A stretch of DNA of 64,000 nucleotides from sequence record OR995200.1. One strand, given 5' to 3'. The notes under the pieces were generated by a model. It was not told the DNA's origin. It saw nothing but the letters and a program-made list of their open reading frames with translations, and did no database searches. This DNA comes from Escherichia phage JY01. The position numbers and the translations under genes were made by a program. Of this stretch, positions 21,930 to 47,607 are shown piece after piece (within the stretch, counting starts at the first letter, position 1; each line of letters opens with the position of its first letter).

Positions 21930-21955
21930 ATAAAAAAGGGAGCCCGAAGGCTCCC
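21930..21955 (-). terminator. Rho-independent terminator after the nucleotidyltransferase gene
   Basis: Minus strand GGGAGCC-UUCG-GGCUCCC followed by UUUUUUA. Confidence 0.65.
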
Positions 21956-21957
21956 TA

Positions 21958-22971
21958 TCATTTATAATAACTTCGGTGGTTTTCAAGATAGACCTTCTCA
22001 AGGAAGTCATCCCAGAAACTCATGTCTACTGTTTTAGGCATACCGTTCTTAGAAGCTTCAGTAGATGCTGCTTCTACTTGATCGACCACATCTTCTAAAA
22101 ACTCTTGAACCGTTTTAAATGGATGCTTACCCAACTTCACGTCGAGAATAAATGGAGCGTCTTGAAGTGGATAAATCAAGTCGCCAGTTTTGTAAATTTC
22201 CAATAGTTGAAGTCCACCACGACAGGCATGACTCAGAGCTTTCCAGTCAATGCCTTCATTGGCTTCGGCCTTACGAGCACGTTCACCATATTCAGCATCT
22301 AATTTGTTCAGTGACTGCTTAAGCTCAATAAGAGAAAGCGTTGTCTGATATTTACGACCCAATACAGTGTAGAACGTTTGTGGACCTGTTTTCTCATGAT
22401 TATGGAATACCCATTCACAGAACTCGTTTTCTGGAAGACGATGCTTAATATCTTCAATTTTAGTGCGACGTTGTCCTTGTGTTCCATCTTCTCGGTAGAC
22501 ATTCCGTTGATCAGGAATTTGATTAACTACTTTCAATACATCACGTAATGCAGCCAAACGAGAACCCTTGACACCGTATTTAGAAGCTTGCTTGCGGACA
22601 TATCCTAAATAGGATTTCATGTTAGTCGTATAAAAACGAGAACGGTTGTCTTGAATAAACTTCCACACATCAGGCAAATCGGATTTAACCACTAGTTCAG
22701 GTGGAGTGTGAAGCATATCCAATGCTACAGTTTCACCATCTGCTGCTAATTTAAAGAAATATTTAAGACTGTATAGTTCATGGTCAATATCATCTTTAGT
22801 GTTTTTAGATGATGTGTTGTTAGTGTTTTTACTCATATGCTCTTTAACATTTCCGATAAGAATATCGCGAGCACGAGGAACAAAGATTTCTTTAAAATCT
22901 ACATCAGATTCTGGAGTAGAAGTTCCATAAAGATGACTACCAAAATAGCTTTTCATTACTGTTTTCATCAT
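21958..22971 (-). CDS. Putative nucleotidyltransferase-fold protein
   Basis: N-terminal motif FGSHLYGTSTPESDVD fits the GS…D.D signature of polymerase-beta-like nucleotidyltransferases. Confidence 0.55.
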   Translation of the reverse strand: MMKTVMKSYFGSHLYGTSTPESDVDFKEIFVPRARDILIGNVKEHMSKNTNNTSSKNTKDDIDHELYSLKYFFKLAADGETVALDMLHTPPELVVKSDLPDVWKFIQDNRSRFYTTNMKSYLGYVRKQASKYGVKGSRLAALRDVLKVVNQIPDQRNVYREDGTQGQRRTKIEDIKHRLPENEFCEWVFHNHEKTGPQTFYTVLGRKYQTTLSLIELKQSLNKLDAEYGERARKAEANEGIDWKALSHACRGGLQLLEIYKTGDLIYPLQDAPFILDVKLGKHPFKTVQEFLEDVVDQVEAASTEASKNGMPKTVDMSFWDDFLEKVYLENHRSYYK

Positions 22972-23429
22972 TCAGCCTTATATTCAATAACAGGACATAC
23001 TTTAGCTTTACGGGCTTTTAAAAATTCGACGATAATAGATTTCTTGGGTTGAATAGGAGGTAAACCTTTATACGCCCTATCAATATTTTCTACATGTAAA
23101 GCATAATCCTTTTTCCATTTATAATCTTTATATTTTTCATGCAGTTGTGCAGGAATAACAAATGAACCAATAATAAGTAAAACAAGCAAAATGGCAAGTA
23201 TAAATGCTGATGGAATAAGAGTCCATAAACTACCAAAAATAAGCCATTTCTGCATGATTTCTGCACAGATAATAGTTAGACCTGCGAGTATAGTACATCC
23301 GAAAAAAGAAACGAAAAATGTAGGAATAACAACAGACCAAAAATACGCGCATAGTGTCTTAGGTCGTTGCCATTCATCGTTAAACAATTTGAATAATTTA
23401 TAGTGCCAAGAGTTTTCATTAATAATCAT
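22968..23429 (-). CDS. Hypothetical membrane protein
   Basis: 153-aa ORF with 3-4 predicted TM segments. Confidence 0.5.
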   Translation of the reverse strand: MIINENSWHYKLFKLFNDEWQRPKTLCAYFWSVVIPTFFVSFFGCTILAGLTIICAEIMQKWLIFGSLWTLIPSAFILAILLVLLIIGSFVIPAQLHEKYKDYKWKKDYALHVENIDRAYKGLPPIQPKKSIIVEFLKARKAKVCPVIEYKAE

Positions 23430-23431
23430 AA

Positions 23432-23953
23432 TTATCCTTTCATTGAAGGCGTAACGGTTGTTAAATACTTAATCATAGCTTCAGCTTCTGATTTTGATAA
23501 TGAAATTTCTTCATTGTTTTGACGAATAGAAATAAAATCCGGATGACGGTCACCACCAGCTTTTAAAACACACATATAAGTATCGACTTCGCCTTCAATA
23601 TTTGAAATGATTGAAGCAGTTCCGCATGAATGTGGTTTTTGATAAATCAATACAGCTTTTCTTCCACCGTTTGACTGTTCATAGGCTTTTAATACATCAA
23701 GCAAATCAGTTCTTTTATCAATAGCTAAAATGTTATTTTCATCTTCAATGTTAAATCCTTCGGATACTTCATAAAGTGTTACCCATAAATCACCGATGTC
23801 AATAACAGCATTTACTTTTCCACGACTTTCAAGAGTATGACAAATTTTCTTGATTTCGTCATAACTCATTTTAATAATATCATCTCCTTGACTAAGGAAG
23901 ATGTCATTTTTAAATTCAACACGAATTAAACCGCTTCCACTTGAAATAAACAT
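23432..23953 (-). CDS. Hypothetical protein, paralogue of 23960..24514
   Basis: 173-aa ORF; C-terminus SIRQ…SKSEAEAMIKYLTTVTPSM parallels the neighbour's SIRQ…TKDEAIALKTYLDSVIPTM. Confidence 0.5.
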   Translation of the reverse strand: MFISSGSGLIRVEFKNDIFLSQGDDIIKMSYDEIKKICHTLESRGKVNAVIDIGDLWVTLYEVSEGFNIEDENNILAIDKRTDLLDVLKAYEQSNGGRKAVLIYQKPHSCGTASIISNIEGEVDTYMCVLKAGGDRHPDFISIRQNNEEISLSKSEAEAMIKYLTTVTPSMKG

Positions 23954-23959
23954 ATTTCC

Positions 23960-24514
23960 TCACTTTGAAATCATAGTTGGAATGACAGAATCAAGATAAG
24001 TCTTTAGTGCAATAGCTTCGTCTTTGGTAAATGTGACAATATGTGATCGAAAATCGTCAATTTGACGAATAGATACTATATCTCCCTCTTCATAGCATTT
24101 TGAAACATTTAAAATAGTTTCATCATTCTGATTACAGGAGTTAGTAATAATAGCATTACATTTTTTAAACCATTTTAAATTATGTTTTCTTTTAGTAGAA
24201 TCATAAAAATATTTAATGTTAGTTATAAAATTATCCCAATTATTAATTGATAAGCACATTGACTCGCTTTTAATATTAAATCCTGGGCATGAAGAATAAA
24301 AATGAATTTTATGCTCATCATTAATGCTTACAATTTTATCAGTGTAAGCATATTCAATTTGGGTTAAATGAACAATTTCACTAGACGTAAAATATAACAT
24401 ATCATCTTCTTGCGTCAAACGATACATGTTATTTACTTTTTCTATAGCCAATTCACCAAAAAGCACACTATCTTCTAATACTAATCGTTTCATATTAATC
24501 CTTTTTATTGGCAT
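23960..24514 (-). CDS. Hypothetical protein, paralogue of 23432..23953
   Basis: 184-aa ORF sharing the C-terminal motif. Confidence 0.5.
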   Translation of the reverse strand: MPIKRINMKRLVLEDSVLFGELAIEKVNNMYRLTQEDDMLYFTSSEIVHLTQIEYAYTDKIVSINDEHKIHFYSSCPGFNIKSESMCLSINNWDNFITNIKYFYDSTKRKHNLKWFKKCNAIITNSCNQNDETILNVSKCYEEGDIVSIRQIDDFRSHIVTFTKDEAIALKTYLDSVIPTMISK

Positions 24515-24773
24515 GAATTTGTTCTAAAATTTTAGAGTATTCCTTTGTATCAGATTTACGTACAATCGATACACTATACGGCATACTATCGGTGTCTTTT
24601 ATAAAGCGTTCCAAATGACATTCTAATAAAATTTCTGGATTATAAATCGTGTACATCAAATTACCTGTTGCTCCACGATATTGACAGATTTCTACTGATT
24701 GAACACCATTCCATAATTTTGTTAAGACCAAATCACCTACTTCTAATTTAGGAAAGCCCATGTTATTCACCAA
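24495..24773 (-). CDS. Hypothetical protein
   Basis: 92-aa ORF. Confidence 0.45.
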   Translation of the reverse strand: MVNNMGFPKLEVGDLVLTKLWNGVQSVEICQYRGATGNLMYTIYNPEILLECHLERFIKDTDSMPYSVSIVRKSDTKEYSKILEQIHANKKD

Positions 24774-24948
24774 TTAAAGTTTCAATATAAGAATCAAGAT
24801 TTACTTTAGCTTCTTCCATAAGAGTTTTGTATTTAATCTTGTTGGCATGTCCGGAGAAAGCTGATTCATCAATAATTGTTGATGTATGAACAGCTTTACT
24901 ATACGTCTCAATTAATTCTCTTAATTTAAAAGCCTGCTCACTTGTCAT
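24763..24948 (-). CDS. Hypothetical protein
   Basis: 61-aa ORF; start overlaps the stop of an upstream 34-codon ORF (ATGTAATG). Confidence 0.4.
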   Translation of the reverse strand: MTSEQAFKLRELIETYSKAVHTSTIIDESAFSGHANKIKYKTLMEEAKVNLDSYIETLIGE

Positions 24949-25110: not shown

Positions 25111-25275
25111 CATTAAATGACGTTTTCGATAAAATTCTGAAGCTTTGTATGAGCATCAACCATGATTTTCAATTCTTCTTTAGCGAAAGCTGTGCCTCTT
25201 TCACGAGAAGAGCATTCATAGTCAGAAACTGCATTAGCATATTCTTCAATTAGTTTCATTAAAAACATCTGCTTT

Positions 25276-25470
25276 TCAGTTTTCATTATTCCACCTAATC
25301 ATTTCAAGATATTGAACTAACTTAGCTTTAGATTTATCCAAATCCTTTTTAGCTGTTTCTATACCGTCGTATGAATATCCTTCACAATGCTCAACTGCTA
25401 ATTGATATGAATCTATTTCAATATCACGTGCTAATTTAATGATTTTTTCAAACTGTTCATGTGTTAGCAT
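25276..25470 (-). CDS. Hypothetical protein
   Basis: 64-aa ORF. Confidence 0.4.
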   Translation of the reverse strand: MLTHEQFEKIIKLARDIEIDSYQLAVEHCEGYSYDGIETAKKDLDKSKAKLVQYLEMIRWNNEN

Positions 25471-25472
25471 AC

Positions 25473-25676
25473 TTAAACTCTCGTATTATGATCGATAATT
25501 TCATCAAGAAACATATCTAACGCTTCTAAAGCATTATCAACTTTAGTTTCAAAGTCTTTAATGCCTTTATTCGAAATACCCGATGAATACCAAGCAAAGT
25601 CAATCAGCTCTTCATCTGCTTTACGAATTGAAGTCACTAATTCCTTGATTTTATCTGCTTGCTCTATACTAATCAT
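25473..25676 (-). CDS. Hypothetical protein
   Basis: Track ORF trimmed to internal Met after the upstream ORF end. Confidence 0.4.
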   Translation of the reverse strand: MISIEQADKIKELVTSIRKADEELIDFAWYSSGISNKGIKDFETKVDNALEALDMFLDEIIDHNTRV

Positions 25677-25864
25677 TATTCCACCACATATGACAGAGAG
25701 AATATTGCACACGCCATGTGAGTTGCAACTTCATCACACATATTATAACGTTTCTTAAGAAGTTCTACAAGTTCTTCACTAGTAACTTCATCCATGTCGA
25801 CGAAAAAATCACCATTAATGATGACGTAGATATTTCCTTCTTGATTAAGTGCTTCAATTTTCAT
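25676..25864 (-). CDS. Hypothetical protein
   Basis: Track ORF trimmed to MKIEALNQ; the upstream extension is the promoter/UTR module. Confidence 0.4.
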
Positions 25865-25931: not shown

Positions 25932-25955
25932 GAAAAAAGTCTCCCGAAGGAGACT
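25932..25955 (-). terminator. Rho-independent terminator
   Basis: Minus strand AGUCUCC-UUCG-GGAGACU followed by UUUUUU, then an early promoter. Confidence 0.65.
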
Positions 25956-38984: not shown

Positions 38985-39060
38985 TGGTCGAGGCAGTAGG
39001 GATCGAACCTACGACCTAGGACTTAGAAGGTCCTTGCTCTTCCTTCTGAGCTATGCCCCG
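38985..39060 (-). tRNA. tRNA-Arg (anticodon UCU)
   Basis: 76-nt cloverleaf read by hand; anticodon loop CUUCUAA; T-loop GGTTCGATCC; CCA encoded. Confidence 0.8.
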
Positions 39061-39064
39061 TAAT

Positions 39065-39140
39065 TGGGGTGACCGATGGGAGTCGAACCCATGACTACGA
39101 GAATCACAATCTCGAGTTCTACCAACTGAACTACGGCCAC
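39065..39140 (-). tRNA. tRNA-His (anticodon GUG), no encoded G-1
   Basis: 76-nt cloverleaf GTGGCCG…; anticodon loop TTGTGAT; discriminator C; CCA encoded; 5' flanking base is U. Confidence 0.65.
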
Positions 39141-39254
39141 ATTAATACCTACTCCAACAATCAAGATGTCTTCACACGAAATTAAGAGAAGAGTGATCAG
39201 TTCAACCCCTATAATCGCGTCAAGTAGATATTAATGTGACAGTTGTCACAAATT

Positions 39255-39329
39255 TGGCGGACGTGATAGGATTCGAACCTATAACCAATCGCTTAACAGG
39301 CGATCGCTCTGCCATTGAGCTACACATCC
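39255..39329 (-). tRNA. tRNA-Asn (anticodon GUU)
   Basis: 75-nt cloverleaf GGATGTGTAGCTCAATGGCAGAGC…; anticodon loop CTGTTAA; CCA encoded. Confidence 0.75.
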
Positions 39330-39333
39330 AAAT

Positions 39334-39420
39334 TGGTGGGGAGTGATGGAGTCGAACCACCCGAGTCGCAATGACAATGAATTTACAGTCCACACCGCTA
39401 CCTCTACGGGATAACTCCCC
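39334..39420 (-). tRNA. tRNA-Tyr (anticodon GUA), long variable arm
   Basis: 87-nt class II cloverleaf; anticodon loop CTGTAAA; 3-bp D-stem; CCA encoded. Confidence 0.7.
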
Positions 39421-39433
39421 TTAATTCATAATT

Positions 39434-39508
39434 TGGTGGCCCTGGGTGGAATTGAACCACCATCTGGCGATTATGAGTCGCTTGCTTGAACCTTCCAGCT
39501 ACAGGGCC
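39434..39508 (-). tRNA. tRNA with CAU anticodon (Ile2 by T4 synteny, or Met)
   Basis: 75-nt cloverleaf; anticodon loop CTCATAA; lies 1 nt downstream of tRNA-Thr, as in the T4 Thr-Ile dimer. Confidence 0.7.
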
Positions 39509-39509
39509 T

Positions 39510-39585
39510 TGGTGCTGATTGACGGAATCGAACCGCCGACCTTCTCATTACAAGTGAGTTGCTCTACCTACTGAGCTAAATCAGC
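39510..39585 (-). tRNA. tRNA-Thr (anticodon UGU)
   Basis: 76-nt cloverleaf GCTGATTTAGCTCAGTAGGTAGAGC…; anticodon loop CTTGTAA; CCA encoded. Confidence 0.8.
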
Positions 39586-39590
39586 AAAAC

Positions 39591-39680
39591 TGGCGGAGGT
39601 GATAGGATTCGAACCTATGAATCGCCGGAGCGACTGCCGGTTTTCAAGACCGGTGCATTCAACCACTCTGCCACACCTCC
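39591..39680 (-). tRNA. tRNA-Ser (anticodon UGA), long variable arm
   Basis: 90-nt class II tRNA; anticodon stem CCGGT/ACCGG with loop CTTGAAA; CCA encoded. Confidence 0.75.
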
Positions 39681-39682
39681 AG

Positions 39683-39756
39683 TCTCCATACAAGGATTTG
39701 AACCTTGGACCTCCTGATCCCAAATCAGGCGCTCTACCAAACTGAGCTACACGGAG
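39683..39756 (-). tRNA. tRNA-Pro (anticodon UGG), CCA not encoded
   Basis: 74-nt cloverleaf; anticodon loop TTTGGGA; 2-nt spacer to tRNA-Ser (Pro-Ser dimer arrangement). Confidence 0.75.
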
Positions 39757-39766
39757 TAAATTAAAT

Positions 39767-39840
<74 letters not shown>

Positions 39841-39845
39841 AAATT

Positions 39846-39932
39846 TGGTGCGAGAAGTGGGACTCGAACCCACAAGGAAATCATTCCGCAGCATTTTAAG
39901 TGCTGTGCCTTTACCAATTTGACCATTCTCGC
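39846..39932 (-). tRNA. tRNA-Leu (anticodon UAA), long variable arm
   Basis: 87-nt class II tRNA; anticodon stem CAGCA/TGCTG with loop CTTAAAA; CCA encoded. Confidence 0.8.
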
Positions 39933-39933
39933 G

Positions 39934-40006
39934 CTGGGAATAAAGGACTCGAACCTTTGCATCCTGGAATCAAAATCCAGTGCCTTACCAACTTGGCTAA
40001 TTCCCA
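39934..40006 (-). tRNA. tRNA-Gln (anticodon UUG), CCA not encoded
   Basis: Starts TGGGAATTAGCCAAGTTGGTAAGGC with U1-A72; anticodon loop TTTTGAT; 1-nt spacer to tRNA-Leu (Gln-Leu dimer). Confidence 0.8.
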
Positions 40007-43981: not shown

Positions 43982-44806
43982 TTAGATATTTGACCAGACT
44001 TTGTTTGCAGAGAAACGTTTTCCTTTTGAAACGAACTGCTGAAGTGGCATTAACACAACGTTCGCCCAGTCTTTCGGGGCGATTTCAACGAGGCTACCCA
44101 TAATATTACCAGGTATATATGCCTTAATCATTTGGTCTGCACCCCTAAATCCTTTCACTTGACTCCAATCAATTTTTAATTTCGTTTTATTAGTAATAGT
44201 AGGTGTATTTGAATATTGCTTTAAAAGCTCTTCTAGAAATTGCTGACGAGCTTTAGGTGGAATATAGTGCAAGTTCAATCCGTACATTAAATTATGTTTA
44301 CCTAAACCAAGGTAAATTATCAAAGGAAATTTATCCCAATAAGGAAGAGTTTCCTTGTGTTTAGCATCATAAGCAAAAGCATATATTCGTCCCGGCTGCG
44401 GGCGAACAACTTTATGTCCTTTTACTTGCTTAATAGTTTCGGCAAACCATTTTCTGGTTTTATTATTAATTGCTGCACCTTCATTACGAATTTTATCGCG
44501 CAATGTTTGTCTGAATGAATTTATCATAAGCAGTTGTCTTTCTTGCTTATTGAGCTTATTCATTGGTTTTGATTCAAGCTTTTGAATCTTTTCAGCCGTT
44601 TTAATTCCTGAAGCATATTTTGACATTGCCGAAGTAAACGTAGAGTATTTGATTCCTCTTTCTTCAGCAAATTGCTTTCCTGTCATTCCTTTTGCTTTGG
44701 CCTTTTTATATTCAAGACCTATTTGAATCCATTTCTTTTCGTTTAATGATTGCTTAACCTTTGGAACTTGGGGAGTGCTTTCATTAATTATTTGAAAAAT
44801 AGCCAT
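43982..44806 (-). CDS. 2: DNA end-protector protein gp2
   Basis: 274-aa basic ORF, T4 gp2 size and position. Confidence 0.88.
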
Positions 44807-45258
44807 TATGCCCCCTTAAAGCCAAGAGCTCGTAATCCATCTTCTGTTAGAATTCTAAATTTTATTCCACGCTTTTCAGCTAAAGCTTGCGCTGCTTTCC
44901 ATTTGTCGGTATTAACAGAATATGTATAAATTTCATTCATAAATCTTTTCTTCGCTGCGGTTGTTAGATGTGCTGGTTTAACTGGTGGTTGTGTTTCTTT
45001 TTTAGGTTTTATTTCAATAAAAAATTCTTGTCCAGAAGAATCTTTCATCCAAATATCCATGAAGTATCTACGTTTTTTCCCTTCGGCATTACAAAAATAA
45101 GGAATTACTGCTGTTTCACTACCCCATGCAATAATTTCTGGATTTTTATCTAACCATTCAAAAAAGAATTTTTCCCAATTTGATCTATACGTAATTTTTT
45201 TAGGGTCACCTCTATACTTTGATATATTTTTAGGAACCCATTTTCCAGAATATGCCAT
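44806..45258 (-). CDS. 4: Head completion protein gp4
   Basis: 150-aa ORF, T4 gp4 size and position; late promoter upstream. Confidence 0.88.
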
Positions 45259-45269
45259 TGGATTCTCCT

Positions 45270-45277
45270 TATAAATA
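45270..45277 (+). promoter_or_regulatory. Late promoter for gene 53 and the plus-strand baseplate block
   Basis: TATAAATA 29 nt upstream of the gene 53 ATG. Confidence 0.7.
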
Positions 45278-45284
45278 GATAATA

Positions 45285-45292
45285 TATTTATA
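45285..45292 (-). promoter_or_regulatory. Late promoter for gene 4 (divergent from the gene 53 promoter)
   Basis: Plus-strand TATTTATA is TATAAATA on minus, about 27 nt upstream of gene 4 start. Confidence 0.65.
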
Positions 45293-45305
45293 AACAGGAG
45301 GGCCC

Positions 45306-45896
45306 ATGCTCTTTACATTTTTTGATCCGATTGAATATGCGGCCAAAACGGTGAATAAAAACGCGCCGACTATTCCTATGACAGATATTTTTAGAAACTA
45401 TAAAGACTATTTTAAACGCGCTCTTGCGGGATACCGCTTACGTACTTATTATATCAAAGGTTCACCACGTCCGGAAGAATTAGCAAATACTATATATGGA
45501 AATCCACAGCTGTATTGGGTTTTATTGATGTGTAATGATAATTATGATCCATATTATGGATGGATTACTTCACAAGAAGCTGCTTATCAAGCATCTATAC
45601 AAAAATACAAAAATGTGGGTGGAGACCAAATAGTATATCATGTGAATGAGAACGGTGAAAAATTTTATAATTTAATATCATACGATGATAATCCATATGT
45701 TTGGTATGATAAAGGCGATAAAGCTAGAAAATATCCTCAATATGAAGGAGCACTTGCTGCGGTCGATACGTATGAAGCGGTTGTTCTTGAAAATGAAAAA
45801 CTTCGTCAAATAAAAATAATAGCAAAATCAGACATTAATTCATTTATGAACGACCTTATACGTATAATGGAGAAATCTTATGGAAATGATAAGTAA
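45306..45896 (+). CDS. 53: Baseplate wedge protein gp53
   Basis: 196-aa ORF; late promoter TATAAATA 29 nt upstream. Confidence 0.9.
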   Translation: MLFTFFDPIEYAAKTVNKNAPTIPMTDIFRNYKDYFKRALAGYRLRTYYIKGSPRPEELANTIYGNPQLYWVLLMCNDNYDPYYGWITSQEAAYQASIQKYKNVGGDQIVYHVNENGEKFYNLISYDDNPYVWYDKGDKARKYPQYEGALAAVDTYEAVVLENEKLRQIKIIAKSDINSFMNDLIRIMEKSYGNDK

Positions 45897-47607
45897 TAAC
45901 CTTAATTGGTTTGTTGGTGTTGTTGAAGATAGAATGGACCCATTAAAATTAGGTCGTGTTCGTGTTCGTGTTGTTGGTCTGCATCCACCTCAAAGAGCAC
46001 AAGGTGATGTAATGGGTATTCCAACTGAAAAATTACCATGGATGTCAGTTATTCAACCTATAACTTCTGCAGCAATGTCTGGAATTGGAGGCTCCGTTAC
46101 TGGACCGGTAGAAGGAACTAGAGTTTATGGTCATTTTTTAGACAAATGGAAAACTAACGGAATTGTCCTTGGTACATATGGCGGAATAGTTCGCGAAAAA
46201 CCTAATAGACTTGAAGGATTTTCTGACCCAACTGGACAGTATCCTAGACGTCTAGGAAATGATACTAACGTATTAAACCAAGGCGGAGAAGTAGGATATG
46301 ATTCGTCTTCTAATATTATCCAAGATAGCAATCTAGACACTGCGATAAATCCTGATGATAGACCATTATCAGAAATTCCAACTGATGATAATCCAAATAT
46401 GTCAATGGCTGAAATGCTTCGCCGCGATGAAGGATTAAGACTAAAAGTTTATTGGGATACCGAAGGATATCCGACAATTGGTATTGGTCATCTTATCATG
46501 AAGCAGCCAGTTCGTGATATGGCCCAAATTAATAAAGTTTTATCAAAACAGGTTGGTCGTGAAATTACCGGAAATCCAGGTTCTATTACAATGGAAGAAG
46601 CGGTAACTTTATTTGAACGTGATTTAGCTGATATGCAACGTGACATTAAATCACATTCTAAAGTTGGCCCAGTTTGGCAAGCAGTTAATCGTTCTCGTCA
46701 AATGGCATTAGAAAATATGGCATTTCAGATGGGTGTTGGCGGTGTAGCTAAATTTAACACAATGTTAACTGCTATGTTAGCAGGAGATTGGGAAAAAGCA
46801 TATAAAGCCGGTCGTGATTCATTGTGGTATCAACAAACAAAAGGCCGTGCATCCCGTGTTACCATGATTATTCTTACGGGGAATTTGGAATCATATGGTG
46901 TTGAAGTGAAAACTCCAGCTAGGTCTTTATCGGCAATGGCTGCTACTGTAGCAAAGTCTTCTGACCCGGCTGACCCTCCTATTCCAAATGACTCGAGAAT
47001 TTTATTCAAAGAACCAGTTTCTTCATATAAAGGTGAATATCCTTATGTACATACAATGGAAACTGAAAGCGGTCATATTCAGGAATTTGATGATACCCCT
47101 GGGCAAGAACGATATAGATTAGTTCATCCAACTGGAACTTATGAAGAAGTATCACCGTCAGGAAGAAGAACAAGAAAAACTGTCGATAATTTGTATGATA
47201 TAACCAACGCTGATGGTAATTTTTTGGTAGCCGGCGATAAAAAGACTAACGTCGGTGGATCAGAAATTTATTACAACATGGATAATCGTCTTCACCAAAT
47301 AGATGGAAGCAATACAATATTTGTACGTGGCGATGAAACTAAGACGGTTGAAGGTAATGGAACTATCCTAGTTAAAGGTAATGTTACTATTGTAGTTGAA
47401 GGTAATGCTGACATTACAGTTAAAGGAGATGCTACCACTTTAGTTGAAGGAAATCAGACTAATACAGTAAATGGAAATCTTTCTTGGAAAGTTGCTGGGA
47501 CAGTTGATTGGGACGTTGGTGGTGATTGGACAGAAAAAATGGCATCTATGAGTTCTATTTCATCTGGTCAATACACAATTGATGGATCGAGGATTGACAT
47601 TGGCTAA
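45880..47607 (+). CDS. 5: Baseplate hub / tail-associated lysozyme gp5
   Basis: 575-aa ORF with internal lysozyme domain (MAEMLRRDEGLRLKVYWDTEGYPTIGIGH) and C-terminal VEGN repeats. Confidence 0.95.
   Translation: MEMISNNLNWFVGVVEDRMDPLKLGRVRVRVVGLHPPQRAQGDVMGIPTEKLPWMSVIQPITSAAMSGIGGSVTGPVEGTRVYGHFLDKWKTNGIVLGTYGGIVREKPNRLEGFSDPTGQYPRRLGNDTNVLNQGGEVGYDSSSNIIQDSNLDTAINPDDRPLSEIPTDDNPNMSMAEMLRRDEGLRLKVYWDTEGYPTIGIGHLIMKQPVRDMAQINKVLSKQVGREITGNPGSITMEEAVTLFERDLADMQRDIKSHSKVGPVWQAVNRSRQMALENMAFQMGVGGVAKFNTMLTAMLAGDWEKAYKAGRDSLWYQQTKGRASRVTMIILTGNLESYGVEVKTPARSLSAMAATVAKSSDPADPPIPNDSRILFKEPVSSYKGEYPYVHTMETESGHIQEFDDTPGQERYRLVHPTGTYEEVSPSGRRTRKTVDNLYDITNADGNFLVAGDKKTNVGGSEIYYNMDNRLHQIDGSNTIFVRGDETKTVEGNGTILVKGNVTIVVEGNADITVKGDATTLVEGNQTNTVNGNLSWKVAGTVDWDVGGDWTEKMASMSSISSGQYTIDGSRIDIG

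Follow-up and report, generated by a model that had tools for sequence, protein, structure and literature searches.

Organization of the locus

Two neighbouring open reading frames (ORFs) of 173 aa and 184 aa, reported by a sequence-only reading of this DNA, lie on the minus strand of the window (the whole 64-kb stretch of phage DNA that was analysed). They sit in a minus-strand block between tk/rI and nrdC.11. The 2.1-kb stretch around the pair is 100% identical to Shigella phage SfPhi01 and 95–99% identical to many other Tequatrovirus genomes; by sequence the phage is itself a Tequatrovirus, and its genome is AT-rich (∼35% GC). The same syntenic position, with rI/tk on one side and the nrdC.11 nucleotidyltransferase gene on the other, was found in T4, T2, phage 107, EO1, JS09, VR7, EcS1, fHe-Yen9-01 and metagenomic contigs. 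In the direction of transcription the order is four DUF7438 genes, a 92-aa Phage_tudor ORF, the 184-aa ORF, the 173-aa ORF, a 153-aa membrane protein gene and NrdC.11. The features are as follows:

21937–21956: terminator-like hairpin at one end of the block
21958–22971, minus strand: NrdC.11 nucleotidyltransferase
22968–23429, minus strand: predicted membrane protein of 153 aa (PHROG 944, ‘membrane protein’), directly downstream of the 173-aa gene
23432–23953, minus strand: 173-aa paralog, T4_y05I family; not in T4, present in most Tequatrovirus records
23441–23650, minus strand: C-terminal domain of the 173-aa paralog (aa 102–171; Pfam T4_y05I_C)
23441–23530, minus strand: conserved block SIRQ...TPSM of the downstream gene (aa 142–171)
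23669–23950, minus strand: N-terminal domain of the 173-aa paralog (aa 2–95; Pfam T4_y05I_N)
23957–23961, minus strand: GAGGA ribosome-binding site of the 173-aa gene, read from sequence
23960–24514, minus strand: ortholog of T4 MobD.1 (UniProt P39240, Y05I; 93% identity), maximal ORF of 184 aa
23972–24181, minus strand: C-terminal domain of the MobD.1 ortholog (aa 112–181), predicted to be a single β-sheet + helix unit like PUR repeat III
23972–24073, minus strand: conserved block SIRQ...VIPTM of the upstream gene (aa 148–181), predicted last strands and terminal helix of repeat 3
24194–24484, minus strand: N-terminal domain of the MobD.1 ortholog (aa 11–107 of the 184-aa ORF), two predicted ββββα repeats
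24495–24773, minus strand: Phage_tudor ORF of 92 aa (Pfam E = 2.8e-40), directly upstream of the pair
24499–24503, minus strand: AAGGA ribosome-binding site ahead of ATG 24493, read from sequence
24763–24948, 25113–25286, 25276–25470 and 25473–25712, all minus strand: four DUF7438 paralogs
25938–25955: terminator-like hairpin at the other end of the block

Genes of the block either overlap or lie 0–8 bases apart, and every one has a Shine-Dalgarno sequence of its own. This packing, together with the terminator-like sites, points to co-transcription of both paralogs in one tight minus-strand string. A scan for sigma-70 promoters was uninformative (40 sites against 30 expected).

The Phage_tudor ORF is not found at this locus in the T4 reference but occurs in the loci examined that have both copies, the fusion or the 173-type alone (see below). 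The four DUF7438 paralogs (∼57–67 aa; Pfam E 1e-14 to 1e-16), in tandem a short way upstream of the pair, are a second, larger paralog array of the same hyperplastic region, and DUF7438 genes also flank tk in related contigs. Elsewhere in the window, 11 tRNA genes (Arg, His, Asn, Tyr, Met, Thr, Ser, Pro, Gly, Leu and Gln) are clustered on the minus strand at 38985–40006, coinciding with a bump in GC content (0.43) at 38–40 kb. T4 is usually credited with eight tRNAs; the set of the window phage is therefore larger. GC skew turns from negative to positive near 45–46 kb (interval ∼44000–46000), consistent with a switch of the predominant coding strand.

Two tandem paralogs of the MobD.1 family

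The two proteins are similar over nearly their full length: BLASTP aligns the 173-aa with the 184-aa protein over 170 columns at E = 2e-10 (25% identity, 48% positives). Smith-Waterman scores compared with those of 2000 shuffles give z = 14.4 for the whole proteins, 7.4 for the N halves alone and 7.9 for the C-terminal parts alone; in each of the three tests 0/2000 shuffles reached the observed score. The similarity of the C-terminal parts, which had been proposed from a shared motif, is thus significant on pairwise alignment, and the motif as originally spelled out occurs verbatim in both proteins:

C-terminal block of the 173-aa protein: SIRQNNEEISLSKSEAEAMIKYLTTVTPSM
C-terminal block of the 184-aa protein: SIRQIDDFRSHIVTFTKDEAIALKTYLDSVIPTM

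Membership of the family was defined by an HMM score above the curated Pfam gathering cut-off for both domains, and both proteins lie well above it. The 173-aa protein scores 115.8 bits against T4_y05I_N (E = 1.5e-33; cut-off 24.9) and 80.7 bits against T4_y05I_C (E = 1e-22; cut-off 27); the 184-aa protein scores 138.2 bits (E = 1.5e-40) and 76.9 bits (E = 1.5e-21) against the same models. Both also match PHROG 1502 (6.2e-67 and 1.4e-77, respectively); NCBIfam returned no match for either paralog. The 184-aa ORF is the ortholog of T4 MobD.1 (PF24449 T4_y05I_N, PF24448 T4_y05I_C; PHROG 1502), whereas the 173-aa copy has the same two Pfam domains and PHROG but only ∼25% identity to it. A family HMM run over all ORFs of the window recovered these two copies and no others. 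These comparisons identify the pair as true tandem paralogs within the T4 MobD.1 (Y05I) family.

The sequence-only reading had further held that the N-terminal regions have diverged, and that the pair reflects a local duplication followed by diversification. The N-terminal parts are indeed divergent (23% identity, against 31% for the C-terminal parts), yet they are still clearly homologous, since both pass the T4_y05I_N model. The tandem paralogy likewise stands; the recent duplication does not (see below). That interpretation was therefore only partly right, because the paralogs are homologous throughout and appear ancient rather than recent.

The true start of the MobD.1 ortholog is probably the ATG at 24493 (M8 of the ORF), giving a product of 177 aa. 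This ATG follows directly after the stop codon of the preceding gene; the 177-aa form is the one annotated in phage 107 and JY01, and the exact 177-aa sequence is present in public records. Ahead of the 173-aa gene, the GAGGA ribosome-binding site shares bases with the TGA stop codon of the preceding paralog, an arrangement that suggests translational coupling of the 173-aa gene to its neighbour.

Both genes are intact and under purifying selection among close relatives, with dN/dS values of 0.09–0.25 for the 173-aa gene against its close relatives and 0.28 for the MobD.1 ortholog against T4 (counts are small in both cases). The exact sequences of the paralogs recur across many public phage genomes.

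One RefSeq name for the MobD.1 ortholog, ‘molybdopterin-guanine dinucleotide biosynthesis protein MobD’, was rejected: Pfam detects no Mob domain. The label appears to arise from the T4 gene symbol mobD (mobile endonuclease D). Homologs of MobD.1 and of MobD.4 widely carry the molybdopterin label in RefSeq phage and bacterial records, which looks like a name collision with the T4 symbol that has spread through annotation.

Distribution of the family and states of the locus

In T4 the stretch between nrdC.11 and mobD.1 is taken up by mobD, which encodes an HNH homing endonuclease. T4 therefore has no counterpart of the 173-aa gene, whose position mobD occupies, and it lacks the membrane-protein gene as well. 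T4 is the minority state at this locus, judged by sequence records: a 401-nt probe spanning the point where the two paralogs meet is at least 80% covered in 436 phage records, against 47 for the equivalent T4-type junction (mobD.1/mobD). A tblastn search with the 173-aa protein found 433 phage records at an identity of at least 80%.

The family as a whole is narrow and, on the sequences searched, confined to T4-like phages. An exhaustive HMM search of 1.84 billion representative proteins returned 29 clusters, which are T4-like phage sequences as far as they can be traced; one of the 29, a 1572-aa repeat protein (P0070), was rejected as spurious.

Among these phages the locus takes several forms. 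Mosigvirus (JS09) and Gaprivervirus (VR7) carry MobD.1 alone, followed by the membrane protein and nrdC.11. The Tequatrovirus phage EO1 combines the 173-aa gene with a MobD.1 allele at 50% identity. A metagenomic T4-like contig has a 173-type gene alone at the locus, with 40% identity to the window copy in the N-domain and 81% in the C-domain. Kagamiyamavirus EcS1 and Tegunavirus fHe-Yen9-01 have only a 74–75-aa gene for the C-terminal domain, directly upstream of a membrane-protein homolog; the conserved C-terminal block is also found in stand-alone proteins of 70–87 aa, at the same locus in these two genera. Finally, six contigs from at least four sequencing runs contain a natural in-frame fusion: a single 179-aa gene (protein P0021; locus L007 4001–4540, also L008–L010) made up of a 5′ part of ∼385 nt from the MobD.1 gene and a 3′ part of ∼150 nt from the 173-type gene, joined at a GA(A/T)ACT microhomology.

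Frameshifts interrupt the two family genes in the record of T2, AP018813 (L003 2952–3491 and 3501–4019): the coding sequence of MobD.1 runs through three frames, and in the 173-type gene a middle section is out of frame and contains stop codons. From the sequence these frameshifts may be real decay or sequencing error.

A sub-threshold match to DUF7189 was seen at aa 136–164 of the 173-aa protein, covering the C-terminal strand and helix (E = 3.5e-5, 24.4 bits against a cut-off of 27). A distant contig encodes small DUF7189 proteins (54–66 aa) close to its family gene (L014 989–1189 and 1543–1707). By sequence, the C-terminal repeat may have another truncated relative in DUF7189.

In T4 the segment nrdC.11–mobD.3 can be deleted (PMC9825161), and the family is therefore accessory. 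Moreover, since T4 retains MobD.1 in the absence of the 173-aa paralog and of the membrane protein, neither partner is obligatory.

The adjacent membrane protein

Every non-T4 locus examined has a homologous membrane protein adjacent to the family gene. Beyond the window, homologs lie immediately downstream of a family gene at nine other loci, including those with the C-domain only (phmmer E from 1e-15 to 3e-74). Positions of homologs (∼150 aa) are:

L004 4014–4466: membrane-protein homolog
L005 4050–4523: membrane-protein homolog
L011 3197–3685: membrane-protein homolog
L012 3216–3644: membrane-protein homolog
L013 2060–2512: membrane-protein homolog
L014 2299–2772: membrane-protein homolog

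The ends of the protein are conserved: IINxNSWHxKL...LCxYFW at the N-terminus and F(L/I)KA(R/K)KxKxCPx(I/L)E at the C-terminus. It is possible, from this arrangement of genes, that the membrane protein is a functional partner of the family proteins. Gene order is broadly conserved in T-even phages, and adjacency is therefore weak evidence of coupling.

Age and origin of the pair

What relates the two genes can be asked at two levels: whether the similarity is real at all and, if so, how old it is. That it arises by chance or composition, or that one copy is a functionless decaying pseudogene, is a reading with next to no remaining probability, the BLASTP, Pfam, shuffle and dN/dS results having already refuted it. 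The AT-richness of the genome, the frameshifts that interrupt both family genes in the T2 record and the fact that the region is deletable in T4 would lend it some colour, but no shuffle in 2000 reproduces the similarity, the Pfam E-values range from 1e-21 to 1e-40, dN/dS is well under 1 for both genes, and intact copies are present in more than 400 phage records. That the pair arose by a recent in-situ tandem duplication in this phage lineage, followed by rapid divergence, is a version of the local duplication proposed by the original reading, and the adjacency, shared orientation and common two-domain architecture of the genes agree with it. In bootstrapped neighbour-joining (NJ) trees, however, the 173-type gene pairs with its neighbour in 0–2% of replicates; they are never sisters. 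In the whole-protein tree the 173-type forms its own clade at 100%, while T4-type MobD.1, the other Tequatrovirus alleles and Mosigvirus MobD.1 group together, to the exclusion of the 173-type, at 96%. The split therefore predates the divergence of MobD.1 between genera, or the 173-aa lineage has evolved much faster. The identity of the pair (23% in the N-domain, 31% in the C-domain) is also lower than that between MobD.1 orthologs of different genera (36–38% and 58–65%), no nucleotide similarity remains between the two genes, and one contig has the 173-type gene alone at the locus. NJ is a simple method, sensitive to long branches, and a rate increase in one copy after duplication could make the split look older than it is; even so, a recent local duplication is unlikely and, as stated, is not supported by the sequence comparisons.

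An old origin can take more than one form. The tandem state may derive either from an old duplication with subsequent losses or from unequal recombination between phages with divergent alleles: given the tree and the existence of genomes with MobD.1 alone and with the 173-type alone, the second route could equally have produced it. Within each lineage, by sequence comparison, the N-domain diverges much faster than the C-domain: two MobD.1 alleles share 38% identity in the N-domain and 65% in the C-domain, and two 173-type alleles 40% and 81%.

Predicted fold

AlphaFold2 produced a confident model of the 184-aa protein from an alignment of 35 sequences (mean pLDDT 87.1, pTM 0.63). The model has three successive β-sheet + helix units:

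Unit 1: strands 10–43, helix 44–52
Unit 2: strands 60–90, helix 93–107
Unit 3: strands 112–163, helix 164–180

Structural neighbours of the model include human PURA repeat III (7.6), StWhy2 (7.5), MRP1 (7.3) and Borrelia Pur-alpha (7.3), and also PC4/Sub1, YdbC and a phage T5 PC4 homolog (5.0–6.1). Foldseek matched Pur-alpha repeat III with a target-normalised TM-score of 0.85; the whole-chain E-value to Pur-alpha is weak (0.059). Most whole-chain Foldseek matches in the PDB (FACT/Pob3, Ctf4, sliding clamp) were disregarded as spurious tandem-domain matches with TM-scores <0.2, and high TM-scores were confined to Pur-alpha repeat III. A structure search of BFVD gave good matches to family members only. 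From the aligned lengths, the N-domain would account for the Pur-alpha I–II match and the C-domain for the one to repeat III.

In the predicted 184-aa protein the N-terminal domain has the arrangement ββββα-linker-ββββα within one chain, which defines a type I PC4-like domain. The MobD.1 ortholog is thus predicted to have a Pur-alpha-like architecture: a type I PC4-like N-terminal domain followed by a lone third repeat. Profile comparison of the repeats is in part consistent with this. Repeats 1 and 3 align by hhalign with a probability of 90.5% (E = 1.3e-6), pairing ‘..LTQEDD..i.ft..Ei..l’ with ‘..IRQ.DD..v.fTK.EA.aL’, and cross-domain HMM matches agree; repeat 2 has no profile similarity to repeats 1 and 3 (probability <1%), the predicted topology being common to all three.

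At the level of sequence no link to PUR, PC4 or Whirly proteins was detected. Neither protein matches the PurA family in Pfam at E up to 1, and the family HMM finds no Pur-alpha chain among all PDB sequences at E up to 10; a match to CsoS1D in that search was attributed to chance (E = 0.5). The resemblance of the model to the PUR family is structural only, and a strict PUR-family sequence-profile match is absent. The 173-aa protein gave a poor model (alignment of 21 sequences, pLDDT 54.6) with helices at equivalent places, and its fold is therefore taken from its homology to the 184-aa protein.

Comparison with known proteins of this fold brings out further differences. Eukaryotic Pur-alpha (PURA; repeats I–II 3k44, repeat III 5fgo) has no detectable sequence similarity to the phage proteins, which are acidic. 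PURA is about twice the size of the proteins of the MobD.1 family. MRP1/MRP2 and Whirly proteins are basic, form tetramers and lack a third repeat. The Trypanosoma MRP1/MRP2 and the Whirly proteins (p24/PBF-2, StWhy2) bind RNA or ssDNA (PMC7549692). The single-repeat Pur-alpha of Borrelia burgdorferi, Bpur (3n8b, 3nm7), likewise without sequence similarity to the phage proteins, is a documented nucleic-acid-binding transcriptional modulator (PMC3764826); the stand-alone C-terminal repeat proteins described above parallel it.

A possible mechanism

In the PC4-like fold two ββββα repeats swap their helices, either in one chain (type I) or between two (type II), and a single ββββα repeat is considered ‘highly unlikely’ as a folded entity (PMC7549692). 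Pur-alpha is the only reported protein with both types: its repeats I–II bind nucleic acid and its repeat III dimerises, and Pur-alpha/Pur-beta heterodimers through repeat III are formally possible (PMC7549692).

Read against this background, the fast-evolving N-terminal part of the MobD.1 ortholog, with its two ββββα repeats, would be an intramolecular type I PC4-like domain, and the conserved C-terminal block would be the last strands and helix of the lone third repeat; for the 173-aa paralog this architecture is extended by homology only. Since one repeat of this fold would probably be unstable on its own, the C-terminal repeat would pair with a second copy. By analogy with Pur-alpha, the products would be homodimers, with heterodimers a further possibility in phages that have both genes and probably co-translate them, so that two variable N-terminal domains for ligand binding would be brought into one complex. 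On this analogy the conserved block most likely serves to pair with another such repeat, a role that fits with the block being the most conserved part of the protein, free-standing in other T4-like genera and exchanged in the natural fusion. The membrane protein encoded alongside may be a further contact of the conserved C-terminal tail.

By analogy of fold, the ligand of the N-domain would be single-stranded DNA or RNA, but the composition of the proteins speaks otherwise. All full-length family members are acidic (pI 4.1–5.8, net charge −3 to −30); a per-domain calculation, made for the two window proteins only, finds acidity in both domains of each. The best-conserved motifs of the N-domain, QEDD and NIExE, are acidic too, and other structural neighbours (an SsgA-like protein, the KhtT N-domain, COMM domains and PsiB) use the fold without binding nucleic acid. 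For these reasons we slightly favour a protein ligand, such as a nucleic-acid-binding protein of host or phage, or nucleic-acid mimicry, over classical nucleic-acid binding. In the literature searched, mobD.1 is named in a single paper, as a landmark only, and nothing functional on MobD.1 or y05I was found.

The main competitor is that these are bona fide ssDNA- or RNA-binding regulators, in which an N-domain like PUR I–II binds and melts nucleic acid and the paralogs recognise different sequences. Most of the top structural neighbours do bind nucleic acid (Pur-alpha, MRP1/2, p24, StWhy2, Bpur, PC4/Sub1, the T5 PC4 homolog and YdbC), and nucleic-acid-binding surfaces are common to PC4-like domains (PMC7549692). 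The family proteins are aromatic-rich (12–20 per protein), and known members of the fold stack bases with aromatic residues. The Pfam label ‘putative transcription factor’ implies the same function, presumably on the basis of fold analogy. Against this, every full-length family member is acidic, and such uniform acidity, a feature of composition, argues against binding of ssDNA or ssRNA on the β-sheet face; we regard regulators of this kind as less likely, but as a strong alternative. More speculative, and improbable as a whole, is the idea that the family is a phage-specific second class with Pur-alpha's combination of types I and II, turned acidic: the N-domain would mimic nucleic acid or capture a host nucleic-acid-binding or defence protein, the C-repeat would form homo- and heterodimers and perhaps dock on the membrane protein, and copy number and allele shuffling would tune host range.

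The explanation we prefer, with a probability of about one half, is that the two genes are ancient paralogs of the accessory MobD.1 family with a Pur-alpha-like fold, in which the C-repeat serves pairing and the variable N-domain binds a ligand, with a lean towards a protein target.

Significance

As a genome feature the pair is ordinary: uncharacterised and accessory, both genes lie in a part of T-even genomes known to be hyperplastic. The family is already in Pfam and PHROG and is represented in hundreds of GenBank records, and its novelty is therefore low. The exception is the T4 reference: at the site of the mobD homing endonuclease it has lost both the second paralog and the membrane protein. 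Because of this loss no T4 gene name exists for the more common two-gene state, which annotations call ‘hypothetical’ or wrongly give a molybdopterin biosynthesis name. What is new here is the history of the locus, together with a testable hypothesis: a Pur-alpha-like architecture of three repeats with a C-terminal dimerisation repeat. If confirmed, it would provide a viral example of an architecture that a 2020 review called unique to Pur-alpha (PMC7549692, Janowski & Niessing).
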